Assembly: GCF_964204865.1 (NCBI RefSeq)
Contig: NC_135264.1
Location: 12,586,001 to 12,650,000 of the forward strand
Length of the DNA: 64,000 nt
Direction of reading: 5' to 3'
DNA from: Styela clava
Taxonomy: Eukaryota
Shown piece after piece: positions 1-28,415 of this stretch. The position numbers were made by a program, and so were the translations under genes. The notes under the pieces were generated by a model. That model made no database searches, was not told where the DNA came from, and saw only the letters and a program-made list of their open reading frames with translations. Numbering within the stretch: position 1 is the stretch's first letter; each line of letters opens with the position of its first letter.

Positions 1-917
1 ATTTAAAACCAGGCAAAACTTATTTACTACTTAATAGCGTTGTTTAGATATTTGATCGAAGAATTCGATTCAATTTGGAATTGTATTTTATTTAAGGCGG
101 CATTTTATTAAATCAATATATATATATATGACTGAATATAGCAACTTTTATGACCTTGAGTCACATTTTTGTTATGGTTGAAATAAGCTTCATCATGATT
201 TTAAAAAGTTTCAAAGCCGCAAAATGATGTTTGTAGAACTCAACAAGGTATGAAAGTAATTTAGATAAGGATTGGGTTTCCTGTGTGTATCATTATTAAC
301 TTATGAATTCGTGATAACATTGCCTGAAGCCTAAACTATAATATTACAATTTTCAAGAGATTCAAGGTAAAATCGCTTACTATCTTAAACATGGAATGAT
401 TAAATATGCATGTTTCGGATTGTTAAACCAAGTTTTAGATCTTAAATTGTTGTTACTGCTGCTGTAGCTACTGCTGAAATGAGTTGTTTATTATAGAATC
501 GTTTTATTGTCAATACCCTCTGCCATGACCGAGTGATATCAATACAACTTTATGTTGTAATTAACAGAATTAAAATACAAAATATCATATTCTGACATTC
601 TGATTTGAAATATATTTTTGATTTTAATTTTTTAATAAATTTTATTATGAATCAATATCAACTCGATTGTTGTGCGTGACAATGAATATGATAGTTGAGG
701 ACATGTCCTAGGGTAAATATCGTGAAATGTTGTCATCCGATTGTCTGAAATGATTTAACATAGCGTACAAACTTTAAAACGTGGTATAAAAATTTGCTAC
801 ATAAAAAGGAATATTTATTAGGATATCAATGACGAATAATTTGGCAAATAACAATATTCTTTTATTCGTTTTCATTTTATTGAAAAAAAAACATTTTCTT
901 AATATATTACATTTTAG

Positions 918-1436
918 AGAACCGGGTTCATGCTTATCGGAAAAATGCACTAGTAATAAAACTCTTCAGTGTTTTATACGAAGAAAGAAAAAATGGTGTC
1001 CAAAATATGAATGTAGAACAAAAAGATGCGAAAGAAAACAATGGGAACCAATTGCAAACGGATTGTTCCCATTTGAAGAGGTTACGGTAAAGGTAAGAAA
1101 TTTAATTTTATTGCATCCGAAAGATGGAATGATTAATCTTTCTGATTAAGAACAGAGTAAATCAATCGATATAAATTGTAATCAGACTAACGCATCTTCA
1201 TAAGCGAAAACAATAAAAATACAAGTAAAATACAACCCATAAACTGACAACTATCAAAAATTATACGAACAGGCGTCGTATGAAAAAGGTAGATAATTTT
1301 TGCAATTTCTGGGAATTAAATCTACTCTTGGTTTTATTTTTAACATAATTTATATTTATATTTTTTAAATTTACAGTATCCGTGCGGATGTGAATGCGTG
1401 GAGATTGACTATTCAGATTCAGACAAGAAGTCTTAA
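918..1436 (+). CDS. Array gene 1 (type A), 3' part only. Exon 3 918-1092 and exon 4 1377-1436 of a secreted Cys-rich, putative cystine-knot protein; 5' exons lie upstream of the window
   Basis: ttttag|A acceptor at 916-917. Exon reads EPGSCLSEKCTSNKTLQCFIRRKKKWCPKYECRTKRCERKQWEPIANGLFPFEEVTVK, then AAG|GTAAGA donor. Last exon ttacag|YPCGCECVEIDYSDSDKKS*. Same phase-2/phase-0 introns and PCGCEC motif as the other members. Confidence 0.8.
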
Positions 1437-4400
1437 AATTTCTGAAACATCCGCCAAACTTAATCAGTGATCCGTGAAAGGTTCAGCTACTAAATTTGCT
1501 TTTAAATTTGTACATGACACCAACTATAAGTGTTGCTTTCATTTTAATATTGGTTGCCACTTTCGTATGCGTTTATTCTCTTGAAGACATTTTCATATGA
1601 TTCAGTTTAGACTAATATCAGTGAGATCACATAATAGCTGAATCGCATACCAATTCGACACCCATTATTGAATGTTATTCTATTAATATTTTATCTATCA
1701 ATGTCGCAAAATATGCTATATTTATTTAATGTGTTTATCTTGTATAATAATAGAAATTGCTTAATAAAGAAAGAAAAAAATCATGCCTTCAATTCTTAAA
1801 AATAGAATGCAATATAGGGATTTCAATTTTCGCCTGATGTCAATTTTTACCGCTGATGCATCATAGCTATCAAAACAATTTAAAGAAGAAGAAAATATAA
1901 CACAGGGCCCCAATGACACATATTTTTATAGTCTTCTAGTATTTAGTTGATGCCGGAAAAAAAATATTATTATCAGTTTTGTCACACATCTAAATTGTGT
2001 GATACTTGTTTAAATGTTTATAAAATATTATAAAAACCATAATGTAACACTGGTTTACTCAAGACAATCAGGTTTTGGCTATACAAACTTTAATGGCTAT
2101 GAAAATTCCAAGATCAATTGATTGCAGGCTTCTTTCTATACGGATGTAATTAACATCAATCTAATTCGGTATCATGCTGTATTCAAAATGATGTCACATT
2201 CACATGCCAGAGCGATAAAGATTCGCATAAGGCTGACTTTTGATTCTTTGAATTTCTAGTTAAAACTAGACTGCTTCAGTTTTACTAATCTATTTATTAA
2301 CGTGAAGTAAAAATAATTTCACTACTACAAAATTCAATAGTCGTAGAGAACTCACGGTATATTTAATAGAATCTAATTGCCATTAGTAAATCGAAAACTA
2401 CAGCTTTGCAATCAGTATCAGCTTCTAAATATTTCAGCCAGACTTCAACTTTTAGTAACATTGGGAGTGAAAAGGAATGAGAGCTACAGTAAAAATACAG
2501 GATGGACTTACATCTGAATAAATAATACAAATTAGAAAAAAAAACACAATCGAATGGCGGAGAGTTCAATAAATTATCACATTCCCACAAATGTCAATCA
2601 GGTGGATAGGCCCATAAATAGGCCATGCCGCACAGAAACAGCAAAGACGAATCATATTGCTGAAAATTGGAATGACATTCCGCAATCGACCCTTCCCATA
2701 TATATAAAGGGAATAAAGTCAACGAGAAAAAAACAGCAACGGGATTAAATAGAAACAAACGGGAAGTATATATATCTATGAATTCACATAATTCAATAAA
2801 ATCTTCAATCGAGTCTCAAGTACGTTTCCTTTGTTAATGCATATTCTTTCTGAAGTATTCATTTACTTAAAGCATGCCATTAAATGAAATAACATGAATT
2901 TTTATATATTGTAGATATTTTTTCCAGTTTGCTTTCGTTTTTTTTTATATCTTTTCTTTATGTAAATTGCATTCGTCGTTTTTCTCGATTTATTGCTCTC
3001 TTTTTTGCTTTTATACACTCAAGGTTCATCCTTTATGATTTACAACGATAAATAAAAAAATTACAGTTGAGTAATATTTTATACACGGGGCCAAAACAAC
3101 CTAATAACAACTCTATTTTGCATCAAAAATGCAGATTGCCAATATTCATATATATGTTGGGTAGTTCGTGCCTCAATTTCGTGCGTGATTAGACAATAGG
3201 TCTTCAATTTCAGTTCCGAGAAGGTTCAAAACTTCAAATCGATGTATATAAAACGATATTTAGTAATGCAAAATGTTATATCCTTATTACAAGTAATGAA
3301 CACAGACTCATTACAAAACAGCACACGATTTATTTGGACGCCGTTAACTTAGTTTAGAATGGAAGACCACAAAACAGGAGAAAAAAACAAGTACACTGGA
3401 CAACATTGTGACGTTTCAATACAGCACACGAGCAGATAAAGTTAACAAGCTCAGCAAAGTGTAAGTTCAAACATAATATCTAACACAGTACAATGGTTTT
3501 CAGAGATAATTTCTTATGAAACGATTGCAGTTCAGATTCAATAGTATCAAGTATCCGAATAGTACCATAACTTTAGGCAAATTTATATATTTTCTCAAAC
3601 GGTTATTGTTGTTGTCTTCAGTAGGAATGAATTTCATTCCAATGATGCATTATTATTTATGCCCTGCGGCCAGGGGTTTTACATATCGCATTAGATTTTT
3701 AGAGCAATATACGATCGGCAACAGACTTTTAGCGACATCTTGTGCATTAACGCGCATTTCTATTAACAGCCATATTGTATTATAATTCAATTCAATGCGA
3801 CGTCGCAATCGTACTTTCAAACTCTTCGAAGTGAAACGTCGAAGTAGAAATTGCAGACCTTTGATCATGATAAAAATAAGTCTACACTTGAAAAGCATTT
3901 AAATTACTAAGCGCTTTCAACGTTCATATAATATATATTAATTTAAAAGTTTCAAGTTGGATTTATATGTATAGTATAAAATATTATTTTGAAACTCTTA
4001 TATATACCATAGTTTTTAGTCCCACTTCCACGAAACTGCATTTGGGCAGACATTTCATGGTAGTGGTTAAACATAAAACCTCGAAGAGTATGGCGCCGGC
4101 ACCACGGTGATTTCGAACCAGCTTCTTCCCAGCCCTGACGGTAGTGGGAATTGATTGTACATTTCTGAAACTCTTCAGACATGATTTTTACTGATTCAGT
4201 TTTTATATTAAATCAAGTTACAAACGCAAAGAAGAATTCGAACATATTTAAAATGATAATTAAGCTTTTCTGTTTATTTTTTTGCGATAAACTTGGCATT
4301 TTCTGTCACGGGATATTTTCGAATTTTGATGTTCTACAAAATCGAACAACACGATTTGTGTCTTCCCATTCCACGCCCATTTAAACTGCACTAACTTTCT

Positions 4401-4880
4401 ATAGCTTAAGGCAAACTTAAGCAGTCCTTGACGTAAGTTGTTCTATACATGTCACTCAAACCAAATTGAAAAAACTCAAGGTATTGATGCGGTTCGTAAA
4501 AATGTATTATCACAACATAGTTTTAGGCTAAAGATACCAGTATATTTCAACGCTAGAATCGTATTTCAGAATTTGGGCTTGACATTTACTACAGCGTCTT
4601 TTTGCTACATATGTTAGCATTAAATAGAATCTGTCCATCAGCATAAGGATTCTAATTCATTCAAAAACACTTCATAGTCTGCACGGAAATAAATTAGAAT
4701 TTCCATTTTGGTCGCTTTCTGGAAATTAATCTGCAGATATTGTCAATAAGCTTGTTGCAAAATATCGTTGAGTTTGAAAATTTAATTTTTAAATACTTTT
4801 ATACTTAATCGTGAAAAAGGTATAAATATATATAAGAAGAGAACGCAGGCACCATGTATCTTTCCAGGTACGCCCAAATC

Positions 4881-6330
4881 ATGCGACTCTACTTCGCCAT
4901 TTTGATTTTCGGACTGCTGAGCGTTGCTCGTGCTGTGCCACCGGATGTAGCGCCACCGGGTGAAGACGCGACTCCTCCATATTATTGCACAGCCAAGTAT
5001 GGGTAGGTAATTTTATTAAATCTGAATGGTGATTAAACATATGCATTTGAAAAAGAGTAGAATATGTTTTTTGTTAGGTCTGTTTTATAATTGTGGCAAA
5101 AATTATTACGACTAAAATTTCGTTAAAACAAAGAAAAGCAAGCATTCATCACCACCATAAAACTTGCAAAACATGCGCAACAATTTTATTCAGTAATGTG
5201 GTGGCAAATGAGCAGGCGCATTAACTTGTCATAAACGGAATAAATAGACAAAACTAGCAATACAGATAACTGAAAGCATCTCAGCTTGTGAAAGAGTAAC
5301 CAAGCGTAGCACTTAATTTTTTTTTTTTTTCAGGATCAATTTTGAAACTTGTTATGCCATTGAAGTAACTCGTCCATGCCCCCTTAGAACTTGCACAACT
5401 ATAATAAAGAAGGGCAATTTATTGGCAACTGGAGAAATAGTCAAGTTGGAGAAATCGATAATAAGAAAAACACAACAATGCAGGTCGGTGACATAATCAC
5501 TATAAATAGAGATAATGTTTAAATTCTATTAAAATAGGCAGTTTTAATATCATGGAAATATCAGTTTATATTAAATGCAATGTATCAGATTTTATATAAT
5601 AATGTTTCGAGGTTTACAACGAAGTGAACAAATAGCCACCGACAAATAGTTTCCTAATACAACAATTACATCGATATGCAAGTCTATCCCATTTCTTTAT
5701 TCCGTACTGAACAATCTGGATCCAACCTGCTAATTTATGCTCAAATACAAGGAGTTCAGATGTTCAATGACTCTTCATTTTCAACTTAGACACAATCGGT
5801 CATGTGGACGAAAAGACTGCAAATGCAGAGATTACTTTGCCACAGAAACCGTGCAAGAAAGTTACCAATCAAAAGACGTAAAACTAAGAAAGTCAGCTAA
5901 AATTGTTATCCGGGTATAAAAATTTTATTTTTTTAGTTTTCAGTATATTCAGTTGTTTGTTTGATCGAGGTACGGTCGCAAGAACTTACCTTGAACTCAG
6001 TAACAGTGAACAAATAATTTCATGAATACAATGGTAAAAAATTCAAATTCCATTTGAAATTTTCTGAAATTTGTTTTGCAATGGTGTGTATTAATACTCA
6101 AACAACAATATCGAGTTTTCAATTATTCAGTGAAATCGTCGGCACTCTGAAAGAGATAATGTTTATCGTTTTGTCCGAATCATTTCTGCGTCTTTATAAG
6201 GACATGTTCACAAATCTCGGCTTTCTTTCAAACCCGGCACTGATTTACAAAAATAACATTTATCATTGAATTGCAGTATCCGGCAAAATGCAAATGTGCG
6301 AGAAAGAGAAACAACTTCGACAAATTTTAA
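4881..6330 (+). CDS. Array gene 2 (type B1), secreted Cys-rich protein, 149 aa. Exons 4881-5002, 5334-5483, 5790-5913, 6277-6330
   Basis: Exons join in frame via GT-AG (122+150+124+54=450 nt): MRLYFAILIFGLLSVARA-VPPDVAPPGEDATPPYYCTAKYG/INFETCYAIEVTRPCPLRTCTTIIKKGNLLATGEIVKLEKSIIRKTQQCR/HNRSCGRKDCKCRDYFATETVQESYQSKDVKLRKSAKIVIR/YPAKCKCARKRNNFDKF*. Hydrophobic signal peptide; TATA-like tract about 4821. Confidence 0.85.
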
Positions 6331-6766
6331 AGTGAATACTGGACAAACATCTTTGAAGGGCCAAATTCCGTGTTCGGCATAAAAAAATATATTATATCTT
6401 ACAATGCATAAACATTTTTGATTCTTTGTATGAGTATTCGGGGAACGAGGTAATGTTTTACTCACAGACTAGTTTTGAAATTAGGAATGATTCAGAGATT
6501 TTAGAGCCACATATCCGCTTTAGAAGTTACCTTCGTGCTAAGAAGTAGCAAATAAAACCACTGAAACTATTCATCGCTCCTTAAGTGACATTCACATCGC
6601 TCCGCGGGCATTCGCAAAGATGACATGTATATGTGCGAATGGTTAAACTGACATTAAATGGTTACATTTTATTTTACTGGGTAACTCATGTATCACTTCT
6701 TTTCTGCATCATATTCACCCCCATAAAATCAACTAGCTTGATTTTATCTCTTATGATATAAAGAAT

Positions 6767-7002
6767 AGCAATCCCGTAGTATGTGCATCGGAATGGCGGA
6801 CACCCGAACATAATATGTGTGCCAGGTTGGGGTTAGGCCATGATTTTATTCTAATTTCCCTTATATTAGTTCCATGACGAGTTCAGGGACTAGCCAAGTG
6901 ACTCCCGTAGTAGTTGTACCTGAAATTATGACCTAACCCTAACCTGATACAAATACTACGTTCCAGTATCCGCTATCTTGTTGGACATACTACGGGAGTA
7001 CC
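6767..7002. mobile_element. MITE family 1 (long inverted termini GGTACTCCCGTAGTATGT..., internal GGTTAGGGTTAG)
   Basis: Ends are imperfect inverted repeats (TCCCGTAGTATGT / ACATACTACGGGAGTACC). Same sequence recurs at about 14970, 20945 and 43322. Confidence 0.75.
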
Positions 7003-7839
7003 TAAGGAATACCACTCGTGAAATGCAAATGTAACCCAAATCGGATGATTGGGAATTGCGTAATGAAAAATTCAGTTAAATTGAAGTTTCCGTGATCCAA
7101 TCATAACTCTTTGACAAAAAATTAGGAGCGACAATTGAATGCTATTGAAGAGTGCTCTTCTTATAATACCAAATTAGCGTAAGCACATCAAGAATATTGT
7201 GATTAAGTGCCGAGCGATTAGGATTGCAAAGCGGCGCTCCAAAGAAAGGTACGTGTGCCAATATGAAGGTACACTTCATTCACGTCAATTGGTTAATATA
7301 CTTTTTATTAAATTTAAGTGAAGTGAAGAAGTTTGCAATTAATATTTTTCAATGATTTTCTCAAAAAAGCAATAAAGCAATCTGTGTTATTTGCTATTAA
7401 GCAAAAAGACTAATTCAATAAAGGTGTCGCGGAAATTTGTATTTATTATGTCAAGTTCTTTGGTTTTATCTGTTCCACCACAATCTTTAAATAGGTTTAT
7501 TATTCTTCTCATCTTTGTTTACTGCTTGACAATATAAAACCAGGCTAAACTTAGTTACTACTTAATAGCGTTGTTTAGATATTAGATTAATTTTATTTAG
7601 AGCGGCATTTTATTTAATTAATATATATATATATATGGCTGGGTATAGCATCTTGTATGAACCTGAGTCACATTTTCGTTATGGTTAAAATAAGCTTTGT
7701 CATGATTGTAGAAAGTTTCGAAGCCGCGAAATGATATTTGTAGAACTCAACATGTTATGAAAGTAATTTAGATAAAGATTTGGTTTCCTTTTATGGATAC
7801 GTGATAACATTACCTCAAGCAGGTTACTAAACTATGTTA

Positions 7840-8215
7840 CTGAAACGGATCGTTTCCATTTGAAGAGGTTACAGTTAAGGTAAGAAATGTAATTTGATTG
7901 CATTCAAAATGTGAAATGATTAATATTTCTGATTAAGACCAGAGTAAATCAATTTAATATAAATTGTAATCAGATTCACACATCTTCATAATAGAATACA
8001 ATAAAAATACAAGCATAATATCCCTCTGTGAGCCATAAAATGAAAGCTATAAAAAATTACACGAACCGGAGTCAAATGAAAAAAGTTTACAATTTACACT
8101 GACTGTCGTTTTTATTTTTTGACATAATTTATATTTATACTTTCTAAATTTACAGTATCCATGCGGATGTGAATGCGTCAAGATTGACTATTCAGATTCA
8201 GACAAGAAGTCTTGA
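7840..8215 (+). pseudogene. Pseudogene copy of array gene 1 (type A); most of exon 3 deleted, exon 4 intact
   Basis: 7532-7830 matches 1-335, then jumps to the equivalent of about 1055 (AAACGGATCGTTTCCATTTGAAGAGGTTACAGTTAAG|GTAAG). The roughly 0.7 kb that holds the exon-3 acceptor is missing. Exon 4 at 8156-8215 reads YPCGCECVKIDYSDSDKKS*. Confidence 0.75.
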
Positions 8216-10909
8216 AATTTTCGAAACATACCGCCAACCTTAATCGGTGATAAATTTGCTGTTAAATTTCTACAAGAGACTAAATTACTGTTACTTTCAT
8301 TTTATTATTGGTTGCCACTTTGGTATGCGGTTAATGCCATGAAGACATTTTCATCGAATTCAGTTTCTAATTATAACCCCGTAATCGTTGGGGTGATTGA
8401 ATCTAACCCAACCGCTGATTCACATACCAAAGTGGCATCGATTAATGAATGTTATTCTATTAATATTTTATCTATCAATAGCGCAAAATATGCTATATTT
8501 ATTCAAAGTCTTTATCTTGTATAATAAAAATTGCTTATTAAAGCAAAAAATTTGATACATATTTTTAGCTTTCTAGAAATTTCGTTGTTGCCGAAAAAAT
8601 ATTATTGTCAGTTTTGTCAAACATCTAAATTTTGTGAAATCGTTTAATGTTTATAATATAGGAAATATTATGTAACACTGGTTAATAATCCAAAACAGTC
8701 AGGTTTTGGCTATACAAACTGTAATGACTATGAAATTTAATAGATCAAATGATTGTAGGCTCTACTGGTATATTTAATACCAGTCAAATTCGGTATCATG
8801 CTATATTAACAAGGGTGTCAAATTAACGTTCCAGCTCGAAAAAGATGCGCATAGGGGCCGGCGCAAAAAAAAAATGCGATAAGGGCTGACGTTTGATTCT
8901 TCAACTTTCTAGTTAAAACTAGACTGTAGAATCTACCTGATGGAATTTATTTATCAACGTGAGGGTAAAAATAAATTCGCTGCTACAAAATTTAATATAG
9001 TCCTAGAGTACTCCCGAAATTTTTAAACGAATCTATTTGACCATTAGTAAATAGAAAACTACATCTTTCAGTTTCTAAATATTCCAGCCAGACTCCGACT
9101 TTCTGTAACATCGGGAGTGAAAAGAAATGAAAAATTTGTAAAAAAAAATCTACTCAAACTGAGCAATCACAAATTTAATAAAATTTTACATCGATTCAAA
9201 GATTAAGTAAAATTAAAATAAAACGGTATTTAGCGTTTGGCACAATGACTTTATGATGTAATATCGATTGGAAAATTCGCAGTTTAGTTTCAATAGCTCA
9301 GTAATAAGTAATCAAATGGTATCATAACAATTAAAGACTTTTGGTGAATTTAGATTTCATTTTCAAAACTGTTTTTTTTTTATTGAGGAATGAATTTAAT
9401 TTCAATAATGCGTTATTATAGCAATTTATCATCGGCAACAGACTTTTAGCGACATCTTGTGCATCCACGCGCATTTCTATTCCATGCAATGCGACGTAGC
9501 AATCGTATTTTCAAACTCCTCGAGTGAAAAGTCGGAGTAGAAATTGCATACTTTGATGGTAATAAAATGAGTCTAAACTTGAGGAGCATTCAAATTACCA
9601 AGCGTTTCTAACAGCCTAACACATAAGACTTGCATACACCGGAGATGTTGCTATCAAAATTAAATTTTATAGGAGTTCAAGGCTGGATTCCGAGTCGAAT
9701 TATTTTACAACTAGGATTTTGTGGGCGGTGTCAAATTTTTTTGCCTCTCAGTCGGGAGTCGGAGATAGAACTTTTGCAGCGGGGAGCATGGCTGGGAAGC
9801 CGGAGTCATTGAGCTGTGACATTTTGATGGAGCCGGAGCCAGAGTCAAGCTTATCATGTTAGATGGAGCTACCAGAAATGTTAGTAGCTCCAGCTTCTAA
9901 CCATCTTATTGTTTATAACATCAATATTTATTCAATATTTTATACAAATAATAAAATCTATCTTTTACAGCACATAAATTGTCAATTTATATTGTTAATT
10001 TCAAAAGTTTCAAGTTGTATTTACCTATTCGAAATTTTAATTTTGAAACCCTCATAAAAACCATAGTTTTTGGCCCTACTTTCGGGAAACTGCATTTGGG
10101 CAAATATTTAATGGTAGTGGTTAAACATATAAACCTCAATCGGTATGGCGCCGGAGTCGGGGCCCCTGTGATTTCAAACCAGCTCGAATTTGATTGTAAA
10201 TTTCTGAGACTCTTCAGACCTGATTTTTACTCATTCAATTGTTTTTTTAATAAATTAAATTACAAACGCAAAGAAGAACTCCAATCATTTTAAAATGATA
10301 ATTGAGCTTTTCTGTTTATTATTTTTTACGATAAAAGTATCATTTTCTGTCACAGGGTATTTTCCTAATTTGATGTTCTACAAAATCGAACAACACGATT
10401 TTTGTCTTCCCATTCCACGACCATTTAAACTGCATTAACTTTCTATAGCTTGAGGCAAACTAAAGCAGTTCTTGACGCAAGTTGGTCTATACATGTCACT
10501 CAAACCAAATTGGAAAAAAACTCACAAAGTATGCCTGCTGTTCATAATAAATCGTATTATCACAAAGCTAGTTTTCGGATAACGGTACAGAGTTTGAGCT
10601 TGGCATTTGCTGCAGCGTCTTATTACAAGGTACGTTAGAATTAAATAGAATCTTTTAATAATGAAAGTATAATGATCCACATCCATTCAAATGAACTCCA
10701 TAGCCTGCACGAAAATGAAAGGGAATTTCCATTTTGGTCGCTTTCTGGAAATTAATCAGCAGATACTGTCAACAAGCATGTTGCAAAATATCGTTTAGTT
10801 TGCAAAACATGATTTTTGAATAACTTTATACTTAATGGTGAAAAAAGGATAAATATATATATAAGAAGAGAACGCAGGTACCAAGTATCATTCCAGGTAC
10901 GCCCAAATC

Positions 10910-12320
10910 ATGCGACTCTACTTCGCCATTTTGATTTTCGGCCTGCTGAGCGTTGCTCGTGCTCCGCCACCGGATGATGACGCACCTTCTACATATTATT
11001 GCACAGCCACGTATTGGTAGGTGATTTTATTAAATTTGAACCGTGATTAACAATTGCATTTGAAAACAGGTAGAATATGTTTTTTGTTAGGTCTGTTTTA
11101 TAATTGTGCCAGAAAATATTATCGTTGAAATATCGTTGCAACAAATAAAATCAAAAATAAAAGCTTAAGCATTCAGCACCACCATAAAACGTGCACTGCA
11201 AAACATGCGCAACAATTTTATTCACTAAAGTGGTGACAAATTCCAAAAAAAATGAGCAAGCTCATTAACTTGTCATAAACTGAATAAATAAGACAAAACT
11301 AGCAATACAGATAACTGAAAGCAACTCAGTTTGCCAAAGAGTAACTAAACGTAACACTTTATTTTTTTCTTCTCAGGAGCAATTACGTTTCTTGTGCAAC
11401 CAATGAAGTAACTCGTCCATGTCCCATTAGACCTTGCACAATTATAATAACGGAGGGCAAGTTACTTGCAACTGGAGAAACAGTCAAGCTGGAGAAATCG
11501 ATAACAAAAAAAACACAACAATGCATGTCGGTGAAATAATCACTACAAATAGAGATATTGTTTAAATTCTATTAAAATAAGCAGTTTTAGTATGCATGGC
11601 CATATTAGTTTATATCAAATGCAATGTATCAGATTTTATATATCAATGTTCTAAAGTTTAAATAACGAAAGCTACCGACAAATAGTTTTTAATACAACAA
11701 CTACATCGATATGCAAGTCTGTCCCATTCTTCTTCTTTCCGTACTGAACAATTTGGATCCAACCCGCTACTTTATGCTCAAATACACAAAGTTCGGATGT
11801 TCAATGACTCTTCATTTTCAACTTAGACACAATCGGCCATGTGGAGTAAGAAACTGCAAATGTAGAGATTACTTTGCCAAAAAAACCGTGAAAGTAAGTT
11901 ACTCAAAGGACGGAAGACTAGAAAGAAAGCCAGCTAAAATTGTTATTCGGGTATGACAATGTTATTGTGTTAGTGTACAGTATATTTAGTTGCTTGTTTG
12001 ATCAAGACAAGATCACAAAAAATTACTTTCAACTGGCAAGAATCCAGAAACAGTGAAATAAAAACTTTATAAATATCAAAGATTCCATATAACATCTCCT
12101 GAAATATGTTTTACAATGCTGTGTATTGATATTCATAAAACTATACCGAGTTTTCCATTATTCAGTGAAATTGTCGGCACTCTGAAAGAGATAATGTTTA
12201 TGGTTTTATCTGAATCATTTAACATATATAACATATATCATTGAATTGCAGTATCCGGCAAAATGCAAATGTGCGAGAAAGAGGAGCTTTCTTAGAGGAA
12301 TCAAAGTGTCAAGTGGATAA
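10910..12320 (+). CDS. Array gene 3 (type B2), recent paralog of gene 2, 149 aa. Exons 10910-11016, 11377-11526, 11827-11950, 12252-12320
   Basis: 107+150+124+69=450 nt in frame: MRLYFAILIFGLLSVARA-PPPDDDAPSTYYCTATYW/SNYVSCATNEVTRPCPIRPCTIIITEGKLLATGETVKLEKSITKKTQQCI/HNRPCGVRNCKCRDYFAKKTVKVSYSKDGRLERKPAKIVIR/YPAKCKCARKRSFLRGIKVSSG*. Confidence 0.85.
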
Positions 12321-12770
12321 TGGACAAACATCTTTGAAGACCAAATTCCATGATCTAAGTCACATCGAGATAACGAAAATATATTATATCTTACAATGCA
12401 TAAACATTTTTGATTCTTTGTATGAGTATTTGGGGAACGAGGTAATGTTTTGCTCACAGACACAGATAGTTTTGAAACTAGGAATGATTCAGAAAGTTTA
12501 GGGCTACATATCTGCTTCGAAAGTGAAAGTCGCACTAAGAAGTAGCAAATAAAAGCAACGCAAGTATTCATCGATCCTGAAGTGATATTCACAAGATTGC
12601 TGCGCGGCCATTCGCAAAGATAACATGTATATGTGAAAATGGTTAAACTGACATTAAATGGTTAATGGTTACATTTTATTTTGCTGGTTAACTCCGGTAT
12701 CAATCCCTTTCTGCAGCATATTCATCTCCATAAAAATCAAGTAGCTTGATTCTATCACCTATGGTAAAAA

Positions 12771-12972
12771 GGGTACTGCCGTAGTGTGTGTATACCAGTT
12801 TAGGGTTGGGTCATAATTTTATTCCGATTTTTTCTTTTTTTAGTTCTATTACGAGTGTGGGTCAAGTGAATATAACCCCTGCTCATAGGTTTCAGTTCCT
12901 TTACACAACTGATGTAAACTAGACGAACAAAGTTAGTTACCTCCATATTGGTACATACACTTCTGGAGCGCC
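12771..12972. mobile_element. MITE family 1, variant subfamily
   Basis: GGGTACTGCCGTAGTGTGTG ... ACATACACTTCTGGAGCGCC; closely similar to 34421-34639 and about 63714-63900. Confidence 0.7.
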
Positions 12973-13586
12973 GTAAAATGAATAATAAGATGAAAAAAAT
13001 GCAAATATAACCCGAATCTGATGATGTGAAATTGGCGTAATGGAAAATTCAGTTAAATTGTAGCTTACGTGATCCAACCATAACTCATTGAAAAAAAATT
13101 AGAAGCGACAGTTAAATGCTATTGAAGAGTGCTCATCTTATAATAACAAATTAACTTAGGCACATCGAGAATATTTTGGTTTGAGTGCCGAGCGATTATC
13201 CAGTCAGTTTAGAGATTCGACTGGGAGCCTAAGTGCAAACCGCAAAGTTCAAATTAATATTGTTGTTAGTAGATTCAGCAATTATAATATAATTTTCAAA
13301 GAGAACTTAAATTTAATTTGACAGTCAGATGTAAATGATAAATAAAATGACGCGTTCTGCGGTTTTGTCGTATTCTATTCCGCAAATTTGGAAACCACCT
13401 CGGTGCAATCGTGCAGGATTTGCAAATATAAATTCAGAAAATCGCGAGATCAAAACAACAGTAGCTCATAGAAAGCAATAACAACGTCAGCAATTAAAAT
13501 CGGATTTAATTAGAAAAAATTAGCAATGAAAAACAGCTTCAAATCTAGAGAAGCATCATTTCTCAACTTTCGGCAATCGAAGAAAG

Positions 13587-13696
13587 ATGAAGATTTTACT
13601 CGCAGCAGTTCTTTGTGAATTATTAGTCTTATCGTTTGCAAAAAGGCGTTACAATAAAGCACCACCACCTTTACCTGAATGCACAGCAAAGTCAAG
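13587..13696 (+). pseudogene. Orphan exon 1 of another probable family member (signal peptide plus first Cys); downstream exons not found
   Basis: MKILLAAVLCELLVLSFA-KRRYNKAPPPLPECTAKS then AG|GTATTT phase-2 donor. Matches the exon-1 design of gene 2 (..PPYYCTAKYG, phase 2). Confidence 0.55.
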
Positions 13697-14814
13697 GTAT
13701 TTATTTATTGTCTGCGTTCCAGAATAGATAAATATAATATAGCTGATTAATGATGATAAAAAAGAAAAGATTTCATATGTTATGACAACGTGTTTGCATA
13801 TTTGCATATTTTCAGAAGTCTTACTCGTTGGAGTCAATGTGTTGTTTACGACTATACCATTCTAATTTTTCTCCACTATAATTGCTTCCTTAGTACTAGC
13901 GATCAGGAGATTAGCAATTCTCGAATATCAAATAAGAGTCTCTGTTTTGTTCTTTTAATATTTTTTTTGAAGAGAATTACTCTCAGCAAGGTCACACACA
14001 AATTGTGAAACTGATCTCTAACCGAAGTTACCAAAGTGCCGAGATTTAAAAGGGTTATTAAAAATTGAAGCGTTGAATTGCTCGTTACCACACCAACTGA
14101 CATGAGACTTAGGGCAATTTATGCGAATACGATCCGAAAAATAGCTATGGAATATTGAATTCCACTTAACTGTAGGTATTGTAAAAAGCTTTAAATTAAA
14201 TTTATTTTGTCTGGTAGGTATACTGACAGTAAGTTCTCATAACTTACAGTCAACCAACGGATAAAAATATTTCTGAGCTACAAGTTCTGAGAGCGAACAG
14301 GAAAAGATTGTAGTCTTCAATAAATATTTAATTTATACAAATTTAGTGAATATTTGAGATATTTACGAAAATTTTAACGATATTTAAAACGGGGACGGTA
14401 TTAATGTTGTTTGCAATTATTGAACGCTTCCATTGACGACGAGACTCGCTTGATAGTACAAAACTATGAATGGCAAGAACTAATAACTTTTACAAGCGTA
14501 CATTATATTTTCTGCTTTTGATTTTTTAGTTATAAAACTCCGCCATTTTGCTGGAGCCCAACCCACACATGCTTACATCGTAAGTGTAGATTTACCATCA
14601 AGGAAATGCGATTATCTACCGACCCGCCTAAAGACGTCCCACTTTCGAGAAAATATACAGTAGACGTCAAAGAATGCAGGTAACATTAATGCGACATCTT
14701 GTGCTTAGTGAATTAGTTTATAACGTGGTTGAAGAATAGGTTGTAGAAAAAAAATTGTTTTATAATATTTGAATTAGTGCATTGAAAACTTGGAACAACT
14801 TTCCACAGAAAATT

Positions 14815-15138
14815 GGGACCTCCAGAAGTATGTGCACCAAGATGGCGCATATCCTGAACATAGATGTGTACCAGGTCAGGGTTCAGGTTGTGCGCCGATA
14901 CTTTAGGAGCGCCGAAAATTGCTAGCAAATTTACGTAAATAGACAAAAGTGATTATTTTAAACAATAGGCGCTTCTGGAGTATGCGTACCAAGATGACAG
15001 ACACGGAACGTAGCATGTGTACCTGGTTAACGTCAGGCCATAATTTTAGGTACAAATACTACGGGAGTCCCTCACCTGGTACACGTACTACGTTCCGGTG
15101 TCCGCCATCTGGGTGGGTACGCATATTTCAGGAGTACC
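14815..15138. mobile_element. Two adjacent MITE family 1 copies/fragments
   Basis: ACCAAGATG(G)C...GTGTACC motifs at about 14837 and 14987; TACTACGTTCCGGTGTCCGCCATCT at about 15086. Confidence 0.65.
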
Positions 15139-15233
15139 AGATTAGGTATACAAATTTTGTAAAAATTCAAGACAAGTCAGTCATGAGGTGGTTCATGACT
15201 GTTCTATACATATGATTTTTACTTGGCACTAAC

Positions 15234-15401
15234 CAGTGGTGGGATTCAAATTTTTTGTCAGCCGGTTTCATCACACAAATGTCATATTTTCAGGCGGTTC
15301 TGTTACAAAAAGTCATGTAATGTTAACCGGTTCGCTGATCTTATAAAATTCCGTGAGACGGTTCTATAGAACCGGTTCGAACTGGCTAAATCCCACTACT
15401 G
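15234..15401. mobile_element. hAT-type MITE family 2 (terminal inverted repeat, TIR, CAGTGGTGGGATT)
   Basis: CAGTGGTGGGATT ... AATCCCACTACTG; reverse-orientation homolog of 20155-20321; TSD degenerate (GCACTAAC/GTACGAAC). Confidence 0.8.
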
Positions 15402-15842
15402 GTACGAACTGACAACTTTTACAAATATTTAGCAATAATTCAATTTAAAAAATATTGACAGAGGAGAACCTGATGGACGACCATGCAGCGAAGGTGGCAC
15501 GTGTTCATGTAGACACGAATTCAAGTGGATTCTGATAGAAACATACGTTATCATACACAACAAATCGCCATTCGGAGAACTCACTCATGCCAAGTCCATG
15601 AAAAGAATCGGTTATGCACGCGTGAGTGATATAAAAGTTGAAGTATTCAGTAAAAAGGGCAAAATGATTGTAAATTTATAATTGTACTTGAATATTATCA
15701 TAATACTATGGATGCCGATTTTAGGTAAAATGAAACAGTTACATATAGATAGATTATACATCATTGATAAATGAATTGATTTATGATTTATGAAATGATT
15801 TATGAAATGAGTTATAAATGTCGGGAATTACCTGTCCTATAA

Positions 15843-16140
15843 TAACAAGAGAGCTATGCTGAAATATATGGATATGTAGCGCCACCTAGTGGCAGATGTC
15901 GATGACGTCATGGCACATAAAAAAACGAATCCCATACAGCTCACCGGAATATTTGAAAAAAACAAAAGAAGTACCCTTTTGGTGAAAAATTTAATCTTTG
16001 AGCCCCGAAAATTTCAAAGCGATTGCTCCAGTAATCAAAGAGAAATGCTGATTTTTTCTGTGACAAAGAACAAGAACAAAAAGGGCGCCAGCATAAAATG
16101 CAAAACGATGGCAATGTCCACTAACGTGTCCAATAATTAG
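15843..16140 (-). repeat. Dispersed ~300-bp repeat family 3 (also at about 59555-59880 and 62630-62925, opposite orientation)
   Basis: Shared motifs ATGCT-AAATATATG, GATGACGTCA and CAATTG-TTC(C)AG in reversed order relative to the two mib1-intron copies. Confidence 0.55.
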
Positions 16141-19100
16141 ATCCCACTTTGGTATTCGATATCAGCGCCGTAAAACTACTTTGATACGTCATATAAATTG
16201 CTCAATGTGATTTCAATCACATACCAAAATGGCACAACAATTGACATGTGTTCAGTCTCATAAAGACATTCTCATAGAATTCAGTTTTTAACCCTAACGT
16301 TGGGTTGGGGTTTAGTTTATTCTAAAATCAGATCGAGACTGCATACAAAAGTTGTATCAACTTGTACACAAAATTTTACAGGTTCCAGATGGATGCAGAT
16401 GTGGAATGAGAAAAGCTGGTCCATATCCATAGTGCCCAGAGATCAAAACGAAAAACTTTTTTGTACAGTAGAGTAGAGCAAGAATGTATCATGTGTCTTG
16501 TATTTATATTCAATTAAAAATACATATAGAGTCTTTTAAATCTGTAATTTTAAAGTATTACTGAAATAGTAATAACATGAATAATATATAGATAGAATAA
16601 TTGGACTTCGAACACACAACTAAATCAATGGGGATCAAAAATCAACACAAGGATATATTGTCGCCACATCACTGGATTACGATTCTACTATGTACGAATT
16701 TTGCATATATGAATTATGGTTGAATCTGTGTATATAGTGGATATAGTTCATACCTCCTTTATCATTTTCGCAGTTGAATTAAATTTAATTCCAAAATAAA
16801 ATACTTCTGAATATATTTTATGTAGTACAAATATAATAGTAAATTATTCAGTATGTTGTATAAAAAAAAGCTTGTTTTTGTTTTGTCGATCGAGTGACAA
16901 AATATTTAGTACTACCACAAAAAAATAAACAATCGAACAAAAAAAAAAATAAACAATCGAAAAGAAGCAAATCTGTGGTTATTTGCGGCGTTTTTCTGCT
17001 GCGAAAGTATTTAGTTTTCTACAAGATTGTTAAATCACTTCCAGCCATACGTCAATGATGAACGAAATAAGCCTTTGCAAATTTGTTAATCACTTCAGTG
17101 CATGATTCGAAAATATTTATCCAAGTATTCCCAAGATCAAGGTTAAATATCTATGATCATAAATGGGAAAAAGTTAGAATCTGTAACTTCTGGGTTTAAA
17201 TATAGACAACCGCTTAGGCTGGGATGTCCATGTTAAATATATTTATAGCAAACTTTCTCGTGTCGTGAGTATGTCGTATAAACTTCGACATTGTATATTT
17301 TCAAATTTTTCAATCATATATCTAATATCATGAATATGCAAGTGTAGCATGGAGATCAACATCTCAATCAATTTTGCATAGAATTAGAGTGCTTCAGAAC
17401 AGGGCCGTTAAAATACTTCATCGTTTTTTCTGTTCGTTTAAACCTCATAACATAATATATAACAAAACTACCATTCTAAAGCTTGCAGATATTTAAAATT
17501 AGAGGTCTGTAAGCTCATGCACATATACAACAATCTGTGTCTATCTATTGCGTTTAATAGTGATTTTACCAGATTGAGTAATAACACATGCAACACACAA
17601 CACAAGATCAGCCTCTACAGTCAACACACTCTTCCCATTCAGCTCATTTCAAAACTCAAAATTATTTTAAATTCAAGAAAGTAAAAATGAAGAATGACAT
17701 AGCAAGTGGGTTAAAACGAAGTCAGCCTCATCAGCTCTCCAGAGCAAAGTTATAAAAAAAAAAAATTTATTGCCATAATATATACTGGATGGCCCTAATC
17801 ATTTTTGTTAAATATCATACTCATTTGTATTAAAAATGGCACAAGCAACATTTGAGACAAAGCTGTATAGTGCCACTATACCGGTACAGATTTACCAAGT
17901 CAAGCAGTTAGGAAGTCGTACTACCGGTATATTTCTATGATTATTAAATTCTGAGTTTCCAATAAATGTGTTTCAGACAATTTCGCCTCACCTGATGTCA
18001 GAATGTCGAGATTGATCATTCAACGTTTTCTTATAATTCATATAAATTTGTTCTTCCTACTTTCTGCAGCATTTTTTCCACTTGACACTTCAGTCATATC
18101 TGCTCAGTTGTCAATGAATTTGATGTCACTTTATATCTGCAACATCGTTTCAATGCATGAATATATATTTACATGGAGTACCTCCGTACCGGTAACCTGT
18201 GTTCAGTTGGATATAGCCTACCGATACAAACTACGGTACCGTATACAGTACAGCAGTACCGGTATCGTTAAGGCGTTTCCCGCTTACAGGTACGGTACCG
18301 GTAATGATCAAATGAAACAACCTATTGTATCATTTTTATTTATCGTACCTGCCTTTCTTATCACTTCATATTGCTGTATTGCGGTATTTACTTTGTAACA
18401 AAGCTTCACGTTGTCCCGCTTCGAGTCATTCAGTTGAATAGGTGCAGCCGTGTGTCTTCACCGAAATATGTGCTGCCATTAATAATTAGTTCAGAAGATC
18501 CCGTGTTCCGCAAAGCCACACAAATGGATTCAAAGTTCACGACGCAAATAGGAACTTCATTACAAATGGTAAAACACACGATTAAAGCAGATAATATCAG
18601 CGCGACGGAATACGACGCTTACCCCAGGACAGCCAAAGCAAGGAGGACGCTGCAATCAACAGCAAGTCGTCACGTATGCAGCGGTGGTTGGAGTCGAGCA
18701 ACAGAATCTGACTATCGGGTGCAATTAGGGCTCAAACTTCACCCGCCAATGCATTGACTACACAAAAAATATAAATACGATATGAAACAATGAAAAATAG
18801 GACGACTTCAGTCTCGCCACATATGGTATTCCGCGTCTACGCGTCGGTCTTGTGGGTCCTTAATATAATTTCTAGTACGGTAAGTGATGATACTTGAATA
18901 ATTCGCACGACACTTATTGTATATATCGCTAGTTTTAATAATCTTAAAATTTCATTTTTCAAAAACTAGATATCATAATATTGTATGTCGCTGGTCGGTA
19001 ACCAGCTATTGTTGTCCGCGATTTTCATCTCCTAGTAGTGGAAAAAATAAACTTGACTTGACAAGGCGGTTATACAAGTATTTTTTTTACTAACTATTGA

Positions 19101-19321
19101 AAATAGGATACATCAATAGGACATATATGACCATAATAAAACCCTTTGGTATTTTAGGCCCAATTAATTCGAATAAGTAATATTTCTAGACATGTGTATA
19201 CATCACTGATTTAGGGCATTCTACATGTTTTTATAACTTTTTGTATGTTTGGCATTCATGACAATCATTATTAGAATTTATTATATTTATCTATTTTTTG
19301 ATGCAGTGAATAAAAAATTAC

Positions 19322-19432
19322 CTTGACTTTGCTTTGCATTCATGTAAAGGTTGTGGCGCCTTATTGTACGGCCATTTTGCAAACGATAAGACTAACAATT
19401 CACAAAAAAAGAGCTACGAATAAAGTCTTCAT
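19322..19432 (-). pseudogene. Inverted paralog of the 13587 exon 1, with a +1 frameshift in a T7 run
   Basis: Reverse strand reads ATG AAG ACT TTA TTC GTA GCT CTT TTT TTG TGA. Removing one T gives MKTLFVALFCELLVLSFAKWPYNKAPQPLHECKAKS followed by AG|GTAATT, clearly homologous to 13587-13696. Confidence 0.55.
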
Positions 19433-20751: not shown

Positions 20752-23347
20752 TCAGCCGTCTATTTCTCGTTCTAACGCGTATTCGCTCATGAATCTAGTA
20801 CATTTACATCCACCAGGAACCTAAAAAGTTAAAATATTTATTAGAAAAAAATATTATTATTCGGGTCCGAGGTCCAACCTTAGACGGACTTGGTTGTTCT
20901 TTGACGGTCACACTAGACCTGCTCATGCTAAAAGTAATAAATTCGGTACTCCCGAAGTATGTGAACCAAGATGGCGGACACTGGAACGTAGTATGTGTAC
21001 CAGGTTAGGGTTAGCCCATAATTTCAGGCATAAATACTACGGAAGTCCCTTGGGTAGTTCCCGGACTCGTAATAGCACTAAAGTAAGGAAAATTAAAATA
21101 AAATTATGGTCTAACCCTAACATGGTACTCACACTACGTTCCGGTGTCCGCCATCTTGGTTCACATACAATGAGTGTAAAAAAAGATGGCCGAGGTAAAC
21201 TAAGAGCAAACGCATTTTCTTACCCACAACAACGTTAAACCACAGTATTTTCAAGTAATACCTGTCACGAAAGAATATAATGTTAAGCGACATTACAAAA
21301 CCAAACTCGTGAAAAGATACCGAAAATACCATGATATTTATATTTTTTGTAAAGCAATTTTAAAATACCTAAATTCTTTATATAGTTTCCTTGAAAAACT
21401 GATTAGAACGATGAACTCTCATTTTTAATTTAAATTTAAAGTGATTAAACTCGCGATGTTTTGATCACCTTTGGGTTTTATCCGACTGCGGCCAGCGAGA
21501 CCTACTCAAAAGTTTTTGCGGCTTTTCAACCCCGCAACCTTGGAACACTCTATAATATATTTAAAACCGTCGCCTTTTTTACAACGGAAATTGAACAGAA
21601 AATTTATTTTTTTATAAACATAATCAAATGATAATTTTTTTTATAACCGTACTACGAAGTGAGATGTACCAAAACTAAAACACAAGAGGGCGATATTACC
21701 TTAGTTATAACTTGATTAATGGAACTTGTCAATACTTTAAGATTACAAATAAACAGTCACAAATTGAAAACAGGTCGCTTAAACACGTCTATATAAAACA
21801 GTCATATTGAAACCAACTTACCGTGAATTTGACGGTTTGTAGCACTTTCTCCCACAAGTTTGTTTCTTCATTTCGTTGGAAAACCCATGTTTCGATTTTC
21901 TTCGAAATGTATTGGGTTTGGCAGGTACATCTGACTTTTCCGCTTTTTCCACATGCTATTCCAGGCATTCTTAAATAAAACAAATCAGGTATTGATCTTT
22001 TGGTTAAGCATTTCAGTCTTTTGGTTAGTCACTAGGGCATAAGCTTGGAATGTAACATGAGAACTTATTTACATATTTAGCATCAAAAATTACCTATTTC
22101 ATTCCACTATTATTTAATTTAAACTTCTAAAGAATTATATTGGAGTTTGCGCCAAATTAGTAGAATAGTTCAAAATCCCAAAATCTTATTTGAAGTCGCC
22201 TAATAATACTGAATAAAAGAAGTCAACCTACTATATATTTGTATTGTGTCCAATTACTATAAACGAGCGATAAACAAACAATATATACATTACAAAATAG
22301 CATTAAATAAAAAAAATTTGAGCTTCAAAAAGTAAAATTTCAAAATAAAAAGAGAAGTTACATTTCTGTACTCTTATATTGATCATATTTCCAGCCTGAT
22401 ACTTTCTGCCTGAAAACATCTAAACACACATTCAACAAAAATTTGATTTAAACCTAAATGCATTTCAATTTGTTGTGACGGTCAGATTAAAAATTGTCAG
22501 ATGATTGTTAGATTAACTAACAAAACATCAATTTGAAGAAAAATATAGCAACAAATTATTAACAACTTAGTTCAGTTAAAACATTTGTTTTTTGGAGTAA
22601 AACTTCCCCAAACCTGCACTGTTTCCCGATTGTTTTATAGGGAGTTGCTAGTCTCACGGTGGAAAAGGGAGAGATTGAAGTTTGTCCAGGATAAACTATG
22701 AATCTGCAACTCTGTTCCGGACACCTGGACAAAAAAGTCTTATCTACGTAAAGACTCTTTGTAAAGAGACATGTCTTTGTAGAGATGAGTCTAGAATAAA
22801 CAAAATAGTTTTGTTTAGAATTATCATGGTTTATCCTTTTTCAAACAGCTATTTTAGTCATCACTTTTATAATTTACATTCCGCGCAGGTTAACAGCACT
22901 CCTGGGTTGAACCTGGGTTGGGACCAGCTTTGCAGCCGTGAATGTCAATAATTTAATTCATCAAATTGCGGTTCATAGTCTTTGGTCAGTAGTCTTCTCA
23001 AAGCAAAGCAAGCTGAATATTTATATTTGCAAGATCTTTTCTAATAAATTTATATTAATTTGTATACTGATTTATAGTTGGAATTAAACAAATGAGTCTA
23101 GTAAACAATATTTAGCTAGTGAGGCGACATCCTAGAAGCGGTAATAGTCTTGTATTACATTGGCGGAGGTACTGATAGCAAATGCGATTTATGGAAAAAT
23201 GCTTCAACTTAGACAAATAGTTTCTCACCCGTAAATACTTCTTGGTGCACAATTCGGGAAAACAATCGTCTGTAGGTTTTCCAAGTCTTTGCCCGTGCAA
23301 CTCGCCAATACGGCGCTTGCAAAGATAGCAAGAAAGCACTTCATCAT
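20752..23347 (-). CDS. Array gene 4 (inverted), secreted Cys-rich protein, 148 aa. Exons 23347-23229, 22724-22614, 21969-21822, 20820-20752
   Basis: 119+111+148+69=447 nt in frame with GT-AG: MMKCFLAIFASAVLASCTG-KDLENLQTIVFPNCAPRSIYG/CPEQSCRFIVYPGQTSISPFSTVRLATPYKTIGKQCR/MPGIACGKSGKVRCTCQTQYISKKIETWVFQRNEETNLWEKVLQTVKFT/VPGGCKCTRFMSEYALEREIDG*. Confidence 0.85.
20945..21167. mobile_element. MITE family 1 copy in intron 3 of gene 4
   Basis: GTATGTGAACCAAGATGGCGGACAC...GTGTCCGCCATCTTGGTTCACATAC inverted arms. Confidence 0.8.
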
Positions 23348-26871: not shown

Positions 26872-28415
26872 ATGAAGTTGATTACTGTTGTCGTGTTGTT
26901 TGGTTTTGTAATCCAAGCATTTGCCCAAGAACCAGCTAAAGCTCAGCCCGAGCCATCGTCTGATGATGAAGAGAATCTATCGATTAAGGGTCTCGTCACG
27001 AGCGATATCGAAGGAGGCGGGGCTCGTCACATAGTTCGCTTTAAACCACCTAAATGCGCTGCTCCTACGTGAGTATTTATTGCATCTAATTTTCATATTT
27101 CCTTTTCATCAGCATGCTGCTTGAACCAACTACACCTGATAAATATACAATGAATTTGAAAATTAGAAAAACCTTTTAAAAGGTGATTTTAGGAAAGGTT
27201 GGATCAAAAAGAATAAGATATAAAAAGTGGCATAACACTTAATATATATTTTTGTTTGAAGATTTTACAAACCACCTAGACAGTGCAAAGGACATTGCTC
27301 GGCGACATATTGCAATCTTATTATCAGAGAAGGATACACCGAATGCAATTACTTGCCTCTTACGCTTGCTAGGGGTATCAAAGTTATAGGAGTCCAATGC
27401 AAGTAAGCAATTTTATTTATTTCCAAGATTTTTCCCATCCATATGAAAAACTATTTTTCACATAAGTGTAATTTTTCCCTATTTGCACTGAGAGTTATCA
27501 ATTACCCAATTTTTTGTGAACCGAAAATCCATTTTATTTGAATGACTGACTCCTCATTTATATTCGTCAGTTTCAAACACAATTTACCACAGTCCAACTA
27601 GTTATTATAAAACCCTGTTACGCTAGCTTCATTAAAGAACTAATAATATATTATAAGATACTCAAATTTCATGATAAATTTGCGAAAAGTTATAAGATCC
27701 CATACGAAAGAATAATTGCATTCCACTATCTGATTGAACCCCCGATTAAATTTTCACTTAATTTTCCAACTCTGATTTTATCTCAATTTAAAACACATCA
27801 CTTTTATTCAGATCTGGATCGAAGTGCGGAGATTACAACCAATGCAAATGTGTGACATTGTTCAAATCTATCAAACTCACACGTCTAATCGTCATGTACA
27901 GCAAAAAGGGATACCGTTCATACTACTTTGCCAAAGTATACATCAGGGTAAGTTTTTTGAAAAGTTTGCACAATTTAATTTCATCCACCACTCTCCAAAC
28001 TGGACCAAAATAATTGTAGAGTATATGAGAGCAATCAAATGCTGAGGTCTTTGGAGATACATAATGTTGTTTTTTTGACAGAAATGTCAGTAGATGGTTG
28101 GAATCTATGAGATCGCCTTAATTTTTAAAGCAATATAGGCAGATTTGATTTGACTTAGGACTAAGATATTTGTCATCTTTTGGAAAAATGACACGGACTA
28201 CTTATTTTTTCTTCGGGACATCAAAAAAAGATTAAAAATAGCTAAATTTAGTGAATTGTATATACTGATTTAACTCTATTTTAGTAATCATGAGCTTGTA
28301 ATCTTTGTCATGCAAGTGTTTTATATTTAAATTATATTTTATAATGAACGCCAGATCATAACTCCAAAATATCATTTTACAGGTGCCATACACTTGCCAG
28401 TGCAGCAAGTATTAG
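26872..28415 (+). CDS. Array gene 5, secreted Cys-rich protein, 168 aa. Exons 26872-27068, 27262-27402, 27812-27947, 28383-28415
   Basis: 197+141+136+33=507 nt: MKLITVVVLFGFVIQAFA-QEPAK...GGGARHIVRFKPPKCAAPT/FYKPPRQCKGHCSATYCNLIIREGYTECNYLPLTLARGIKVIGVQCK/SGSKCGDYNQCKCVTLFKSIKLTRLIVMYSKKGYRSYYFAKVYIR/VPYTCQCSKY*. TATAAAA about 26776. Confidence 0.88.

Follow-up and report, generated by a model that had tools for sequence, protein, structure and literature searches.

The stretch analysed here (hereafter, the window) comprises 64,000 nucleotides of Styela clava contig NC_135264.1, positions 12,586,001-12,650,000 of the forward strand (GCF_964204865.1), and the positions given below are counted within it. 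It contains two neighbouring paralogs, g2 (4881-6330, +) and g3 (10910-12320, +), whose divergence had been attributed to diversifying selection in an initial annotation. Each gene presents four coding exons with GT..AG introns and encodes a protein of 149 amino acids with 10 cysteines (Table 1); the predicted isoelectric points for the pair are 9.5 and 9.7. The g3 translation is identical to NCBI model P0014 (LOC120334593), and the NCBI models matching the two translations are described as "uncharacterized protein" of S. clava. The proteins of g3 and of the following paralog, g4 (10910-16432 for the two genes together), are filed by NCBI as isoforms of one locus, LOC120334593.

Regarding transcription, contigs of run X10 carry GT..AG joints in g2 and in g3 (two listed per gene). 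Both copies are thus expressed and spliced in this run, against the possibility, raised in the initial annotation, that one of them might be silent. Splicing was seen in this one of the four putative RNA runs; none of the listed runs is recorded as RNA. In X5, X7 and X8, g3 is covered unspliced from intron 1 onward and g2 is uncovered, which carries no weight either way.

Over the aligned core, 30 of 105 residues differ between g2 and g3, and six codons carry silent changes only. As had been read from the sequence, the signal peptides (codons 1-18) differ by a single silent base (GGA/GGC), exon 2 presents 17 changed residues out of 50 with three synonymous-only codons, exon 3 differs in 12 of 41 aligned codons with three synonymous-only and one 3-nt indel, and all 10 cysteines and all splice sites are retained in both genes. 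The core of exon 4 (residues 133-142) is identical. Eight of the ten residues at positions 41-50 differ, and a scan test with windows of 10, 12 and 15 residues gave P=0.035, 0.028 and 0.20, respectively. Two further differences were absent from the initial annotation, namely C-terminal tails that are unrelated past residue 143 and, in the linker of exon 1, an in-frame indel of 15 nt. The description of g2 and g3 as the youngest paralog pair holds within the window and fails in the wider cluster, where the cores of upstream pairs are the same or nearly so and intron divergence is 0.001-0.015 (the C1/C2 cores are identical, and those of D1/D2 and A2/A3 are one residue apart).

The counts also agree with the claim that this pair diverges mostly by amino acid changes, but the implied excess beyond chance disappears when compared with a neutral simulation. 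At the intron rate and with the cysteines fixed, means of 29.3 replacement and 8.2 silent-only codons were obtained, versus 30 and 6 observed (joint P 0.17); for exon 2, 14.5 and 3.9 were expected and 17 and 3 observed (joint P 0.14). The pair is therefore a caution in itself, since 17 replacements to three silent changes is roughly a neutral outcome. The ratio of replacement to silent divergence (dN/dS), expected to exceed 1, did so without significance in a maximum likelihood (ML) estimate over the 105 core codons (omega 1.51, p=0.38; dN 0.158, dS 0.105), and NG86 values for the mature region were 1.3-1.6 with a bootstrap interval of 0.7-3.8. Nor was coding divergence higher than that of the introns, as dN 0.158 compares with a Kimura two-parameter distance of 0.163. 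With the introns as a clock, replacements accumulated at 1.05 times the intron rate and silent changes at 0.60 times, and the high dN/dS of the pair is due to this low dS. Site tests, done with our own implementations on pairs or small trees, gave p=0.23 for M2a versus M1a in g2/g3, 0.58 when multi-nucleotide changes were allowed and 0.52 with rate variation (twice the log-likelihood difference, 2dL, 1.3). Hence, diversifying selection is unsupported for the pair as a whole, whose replacement count equals the neutral expectation. The changes could not be polarised, as the tree holds no close outgroup; g2 and g3 form an isolated clade (support 100/100) on a long stem.

The nature of the encoded proteins was approached through their predicted fold. 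Neither single exons nor full proteins matched any Pfam family significantly, and a sequence search of the PDB gave nothing meaningful. A single-sequence AlphaFold2 model was discarded, with a predicted local distance difference test score (pLDDT) of 55 and an uninformative fold search. With an alignment of 24 family sequences the model had a pLDDT of 86.6 and showed hairpins at residues 58-90 and 102-142. Foldseek placed horseshoe-crab coagulogen first for this model (E 8.4e-3), followed by the neurotrophins NGF and NT-3, while VIA-align against 48,161 chains ranked NGF at the top (Z 5.2, root-mean-square deviation (rmsd) 3.7, 84 aligned residues), ranks 1-13 being all cystine-knot proteins. 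Independently, the nearest ESM Atlas clusters contain Spaetzle/NGF/IL17/Noggin. The predicted model presents two long beta-hairpin fingers and six knot cysteines ending in CxC, and C56, C61, C90, C103, C137 and C139 are invariant in all 24 family sequences. The model thus points to a likely membership of the cystine-knot growth-factor superfamily, with a shape nearest to the neurotrophins, Spaetzle and coagulogen. In this superfamily the knot connects its cysteines I-IV, II-V and III-VI. From the ranges of the model's NGF alignment and the NGF cysteine numbering, the knot of g2/g3 would be formed by C56-C103, C90-C137 and C96-C139. Moreover, C47 and C101 are lost jointly in P0036, which suggests a C47-C101 bond and would leave C36-C61 as the remaining one. 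Such extra bonds would hold the N-terminal arm next to loop 91-100, and it is in these two parts that g2 and g3 have changed most.

The regions of this fold differ in their rates. Plain neutral decay is unlikely because the cysteines and the replacement sites of the signal peptide are constrained: at the intron rate, the retention of 10 out of 10 cysteines has a P of about 0.02 and the lack of any replacement in the signal peptide a P of about 0.003. Furthermore, both indels in the aligned coding region are in frame, and 22 of 29 noncoding indels are non-triplet. Regional omega was taken from partition grids relative to 1,550 noncoding columns, with regions drawn post hoc and four tests. It was 0.37 (0.12-0.86) for the knot-proximal strands, 1.35 for the finger tips, 2.3-2.6 for loop 91-100 (p 0.06-0.08) and 2.2-2.5 for the N-terminal arm, residues 37-55 (p 0.02-0.03). 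In this post hoc division, the arm alone looks faster than neutral, by about 2.3-fold.

Amino acid polymorphism is present in both genes. Database variants are I50N and Q117H in g2 (P0001) and D23E, R119K and K120R in g3 (P0003), and run X10 contributes A108T, read by hand. At position 50, one g2 allele bears the g3 residue. Among the variants listed, three of three exonic ones are replacements and 17 are intronic; these are too few, and the cover is uneven, for a McDonald-Kreitman test.

The pair belongs to a large family. The tandem duplication carrying g2 and g3 is about 6-7 kb long, and about 28 full or near-full copies were found by profile and tblastn search in 364 kb surrounding the window, 24 of them being modelled by script. 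The cluster extends from about 119 kb upstream of the window to window position 43 kb, with one more copy 118 kb from the window start, and further copies lie on other contigs. All 19 paralogs checked have a net charge between +9 and +20. Among 1.84 billion representatives, a profile search found 23 matches at E up to 0.001, eight of them query clusters. The 10 non-query matches that were identified (five more lie outside that check) are all from S. clava, so no relative from another species appears among those 10, which is weak evidence given the divergence of the family.

Selection regimes vary inside this one cluster. The pairwise ML run covered 12 of 15 pairs (g7/g9 and g4/g10 were left out, and g8/g9 entered other analyses only). 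Subgroup A, four recent copies (L012-L009), has an omega of 0.24, which indicates purifying selection, and values are 2.8 for subgroup B, 1.1 for C1/C3 and 1.2 for D1/D3. With rate variation, M2a versus M1a over six pooled pairs gave a 2dL of 16.9, or 15.5 when multi-nucleotide changes were added (p 0.0002-0.0004); pair B alone gave 10.8 and the pool without B 8.9. Intron pseudo-codon controls under the same model gave 5.2, 3.7 and 0.25 (p 0.07, 0.16 and 0.88), and the exons of the same five pairs 9.0. An intron-calibrated pooled estimate was not relied on, as it includes g8/g9, whose introns are saturated (p=0.53). There is moderate support for a positively selected site class across the cluster, strongest in a subgroup other than that of g2/g3, and g2/g3 is a weak example of it. 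The diversifying selection proposed initially therefore gains support at the level of the family and weakly in the N-terminal arm of g2/g3, and not in the pair overall.

The reading favoured here, with a probability of about 0.5, is that of a constrained cystine-knot core whose surface is for the most part neutral and carries one specificity patch that is likely selected, within a birth-and-death array probably used in defence. In this reading, g2 and g3 are tandem duplicates, both intact and spliced, from a cluster of about 28 genes for predicted secreted, basic cystine-knot proteins, in which the cysteines and the core are conserved and most other sites change at about the neutral rate. The N-terminal arm (residues 41-50), tethered by the predicted bonds, would lie beside the variable loop 91-100 and form with it a single specificity patch. 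This patch likely changes faster, and could be driven by a changing binding partner, probably in defence. Only for a single small patch, and for the cluster at large, is adaptive change thus likely.

Several results weigh against this. The selection tests on the whole pair are all non-significant, replacements that alter charge show no enrichment (12 of 30, with a fraction of 0.40 expected), and the sites at which g2 and g3 differ do not coincide significantly with columns variable in other pairs (p=0.13). Correction for the four tests removes the regional significance (about 0.07-0.11 for the N-terminal arm), and some noncoding windows reach 10-11 differences per 30 nt versus 12 in the arm. 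At the family level, subgroup A is under purifying selection, and several pairs have a dS below their intron divergence, so dN/dS is inflated. The plain M2a/M1a test fires on introns in two of three frames (2dL 17.5, 9.9 and 4.9), so it is anti-conservative here and was rejected as sole evidence. Finally, the fold scores are middling, with Z below 8 and no Foldseek E below 0.001.

The strongest rival is drift alone, in which purifying selection maintains the fold, all surface residues are neutral (as in redundant or dosage copies) and no positive selection separates g2 from g3. This is a tenable explanation, although it is held with some doubt: dN equals intron divergence, the neutral simulation reproduces the observed counts, omega over all non-cysteine sites is 1.22 (0.82-1.73) and amino acid variants segregate in both genes. 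What drift accommodates less easily is an average omega near 1 alongside constrained strands, which implies that some sites lie above 1, together with the clustering in the N-terminal arm (P about 0.03) and a family-level signal of selection that persists.

Concerning function, for which immunity, allorecognition or gamete recognition had been proposed initially, the fold suggests a cytokine type with a cystine knot. A role in defence, as a ligand or an effector comparable to Spaetzle or coagulogen, is suggested tentatively and at slightly less than even odds. The proteins could instead be structural or cross-linked components of the tunic or mucus that bind polyanions, and not signalling or defence ligands. 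This is unlikely, but several features fit: the strongly basic cores, the Tyr/Pro-rich tails of g8, g9 and P0041, the long Gln-rich finger 2 inserts of P0009/P0010, the family genes directly behind multicopper-oxidase genes on C4 and C8, and a number of TIR-domain matches in the genome of just three (a lower bound). However, g2 and g3 do not have such tails, and positive selection in the family better fits an outside partner. Gamete recognition and trophic signalling are each improbable.

Gene conversion combined with an uneven mutation rate would make converted tracts (the 5' untranslated region with the signal peptide, and the start of exon 4) seem conserved and older tracts accelerated. Two stretches free of differences, 51 nt (4862-4912) and 48 nt (6261-6308) long, the g3 residue at position 50 in one g2 allele, an intron 3 more diverged than introns 1-2 and the firing of the plain site test on introns would be in keeping with it. 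It is quite improbable, as the longest identical run is non-significant (P=0.10), silent changes remain at two cysteine codons although the cysteines are kept, and no third close paralog was found as a donor. Least probable is that one copy is a young pseudogene in neutral decay. The overall rate does equal the neutral rate, and the spliced cover of g2 is shallow and limited to one of four putative RNA runs; however, neither reading frame is interrupted, no cysteine or splice site has been lost, and run X10 shows splicing of both genes.

The selected-patch reading can be set against known cystine-knot systems. Compared with the neurotrophins (NGF, BDNF, NT-3, NT-4; PF00243), residues 53-144 of the model align to about 12-115 of NGF/NT-3 (Z 5.0-5.5, rmsd 3.0-4.6), and the likeness consists of predicted secretion and the terminal CxC. 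Identity is 11-17%, and the S. clava family differs in four extra cysteines, the N-terminal arm and its large, fast-evolving tandem array. PF00243 matches 0 of 10 and 0 of 14 family proteins, and its best hit in the genome (E 0.44) lies outside the cluster. According to the accessible text of PMC2586362, neurotrophins are cleaved from a pre-pro-precursor. In g2 and g3, 12-17 residues separate the signal peptide from the first cysteine, with no dibasic or RxxR site, and some paralogs have basic clusters in this segment. Neurotrophins bind Trk/p75 as homodimers; a search of the genome for Trk-type domains, run with no positive control, found nothing.

Spaetzle (PF16077) occurs in the nearest ESM Atlas clusters, both by features (score 0.91, 15% of the members being Spaetzle) and by structure (template modelling score 0.52); a Spaetzle chain reaches Z 4.7 in VIA-align. 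PF16077 matched one of 10 family members with an E of 1.3, which falls far short of the cut-off, and 0 of 14 in a second set; a Spaetzle search of the genome, again with no positive control, gave nothing. Spaetzle acts on a Toll receptor as a dimer activated by a protease; TIR-domain matches in the genome number at least three. Spaetzle has a free cysteine that forms an inter-chain bond, whereas g2 and g3 have an even number of cysteines with no evident free one for such a bond, and they also lack a large prodomain. Coagulogen (1AOC), with 18% identity, is the best Foldseek match and the one among the NGF-type matches whose alignment extends furthest into the N-terminal arm (from residue 34), but it has a lower VIA-align score (Z 3.5-4.0, rmsd 5.2-6.5), and its proteolytic gelation is not evidenced for this family.

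IL-17 (PF06083) shares the cystine-knot fold (Z about 4.2) and tandem expansion in the same genome. The family studied here is not IL-17, because the IL-17 profile finds 32 loci elsewhere in the genome and none in the g2/g3 cluster; it also matches none of the scanned family proteins. Those IL-17 domains, at least 32 in tandem clusters on C3, C5, C2, C1, C8, C10 and C19, represent a large expansion in their own right. Outside this superfamily, mussel MgCRP-I resembles g2/g3 in its conserved signal region, invariant cysteines and variable mature part, but these are short six-cysteine peptides whose scaffold is unlike the growth-factor-type knot (PMC4558851, in the part accessible).

In the accessible part of PMC2586362, Spaetzle, the neurotrophins and coagulogen are grouped together, and neurotrophins are believed lost from Ciona. 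It is conceivable, though doubtful, that this ascidian keeps a hidden lineage of the neurotrophin/Spaetzle fold, grown to dozens of basic secreted proteins and put to new use as a varied repertoire for immune recognition or clotting, in which g2/g3 would represent a new specificity located in the disulfide-tethered N-terminal arm. The family likely represents a variant, so far uncharacterised, of a fold already known, and the evidence that it has changed adaptively is moderate. About 28 unannotated genes of cystine-knot fold, missed by Pfam and with positive selection at the family level, would show how a growth-factor scaffold becomes a variable repertoire, an old scaffold repurposed among the closest invertebrate relatives of vertebrates. 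The literature search found no paper on the family, and the accessible text of PMC1868935 and PMC12816324 holds nothing on it; subscription papers and supplements, including those on the S. clava genome and transcriptome, might mention it.

Table 1. Features of the window around g2 and g3.
Feature	Position	Strand	Remarks
g2 exon 1	4881..5002	+	Predicted signal peptide 4881-4934, Pro/acidic linker, Cys36; agrees with NCBI model P0002 (LOC120333629)
g2 exon 2	5334..5483	+	Variable N-terminal arm, Cys47/56/61, finger 1, Cys90; spliced joint to exon 3 in run X10
g2 exon 3	5790..5913	+	Loop 91-100, Cys96/101/103, finger 2; spliced joints in run X10
g2 exon 4, coding part	6277..6330	+	CxC (Cys137/139), tail, stop; joint in run X10
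g3 exon 1	10910..11016	+	Signal peptide predicted at 10910-10963; linker shorter than in g2 by 5 residues; joint in run X10
g3 exon 2	11377..11526	+	From sequence and run X10
g3 exon 3	11827..11950	+	From sequence and run X10
g3 exon 4, coding part	12252..12320	+	Tail unrelated to that of g2
Putative TATA-like AT run upstream of g2	4822..4834	+	Seen in sequence; counterpart upstream of g3 near 10852-10866
First copy of tandem unit (gene 1 3' end and g2)	1..7220	+	Self-BLAST; about 75-87% identical in blocks to second copy
Second copy of tandem unit (truncated 3' remnant of gene 1, and g3)	7532..13198	+	Self-BLAST
Gene 1, divergent family member starting upstream of the window	918..1436	+	Final two exons, 918-1092 (read by eye) and 1377-1436 (family-profile match)
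Paralog g4	13587..16432	+	P0015
Paralog g5	20752..23344	-	P0008
Paralog g6	26872..28415	+	P0023
Paralog g7	30923..32692	+	P0026
Paralog g8	37034..38326	+	Tyr/Pro-rich tail
Paralog g9	41004..42898	+	P0012/P0024; Tyr/Pro-rich tail

Some other members and remnants of the family deserve mention. The truncated duplicate of gene 1 at 7843-8215 (+) retains the end of exon 3 and an intact last exon with one replacement. Copy B3 (L004, near 3500-4300) has no recognisable exon 1 within 700 bases upstream of exon 2 and is possibly broken. In three members, P0010, P0021 and P0009/P0020 (C19, about 12467-12480 kb and 12562-12566 kb), finger 2 is interrupted between knot cysteines four and five by inserts rich in Gln/Gly/Met, each some 240-360 residues long. 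At three loci, family genes come immediately after hephaestin-like multicopper-oxidase genes: C4:17926001-17936000 (L031), C4:18001001-18011000 (L032) and C8:22729001-22739000 (L034). The final oxidase exon matched in L031 runs up to a splice donor with no stop, and the signal-peptide start of the next family copy is decayed; the hephaestin-like fusion of NCBI model P0037 at this locus was not confirmed as a real fusion.

Finally, an inverted fragment of the g4 promoter and exon 1, 79% identical, lies at 19279-19641 (-), and copies of a palindromic repeat resembling miniature inverted-repeat transposable elements are present at 6772-7005, 14801-15138, 20941-21170 and 43319-43561, this repeat being very abundant in the putative RNA contigs.

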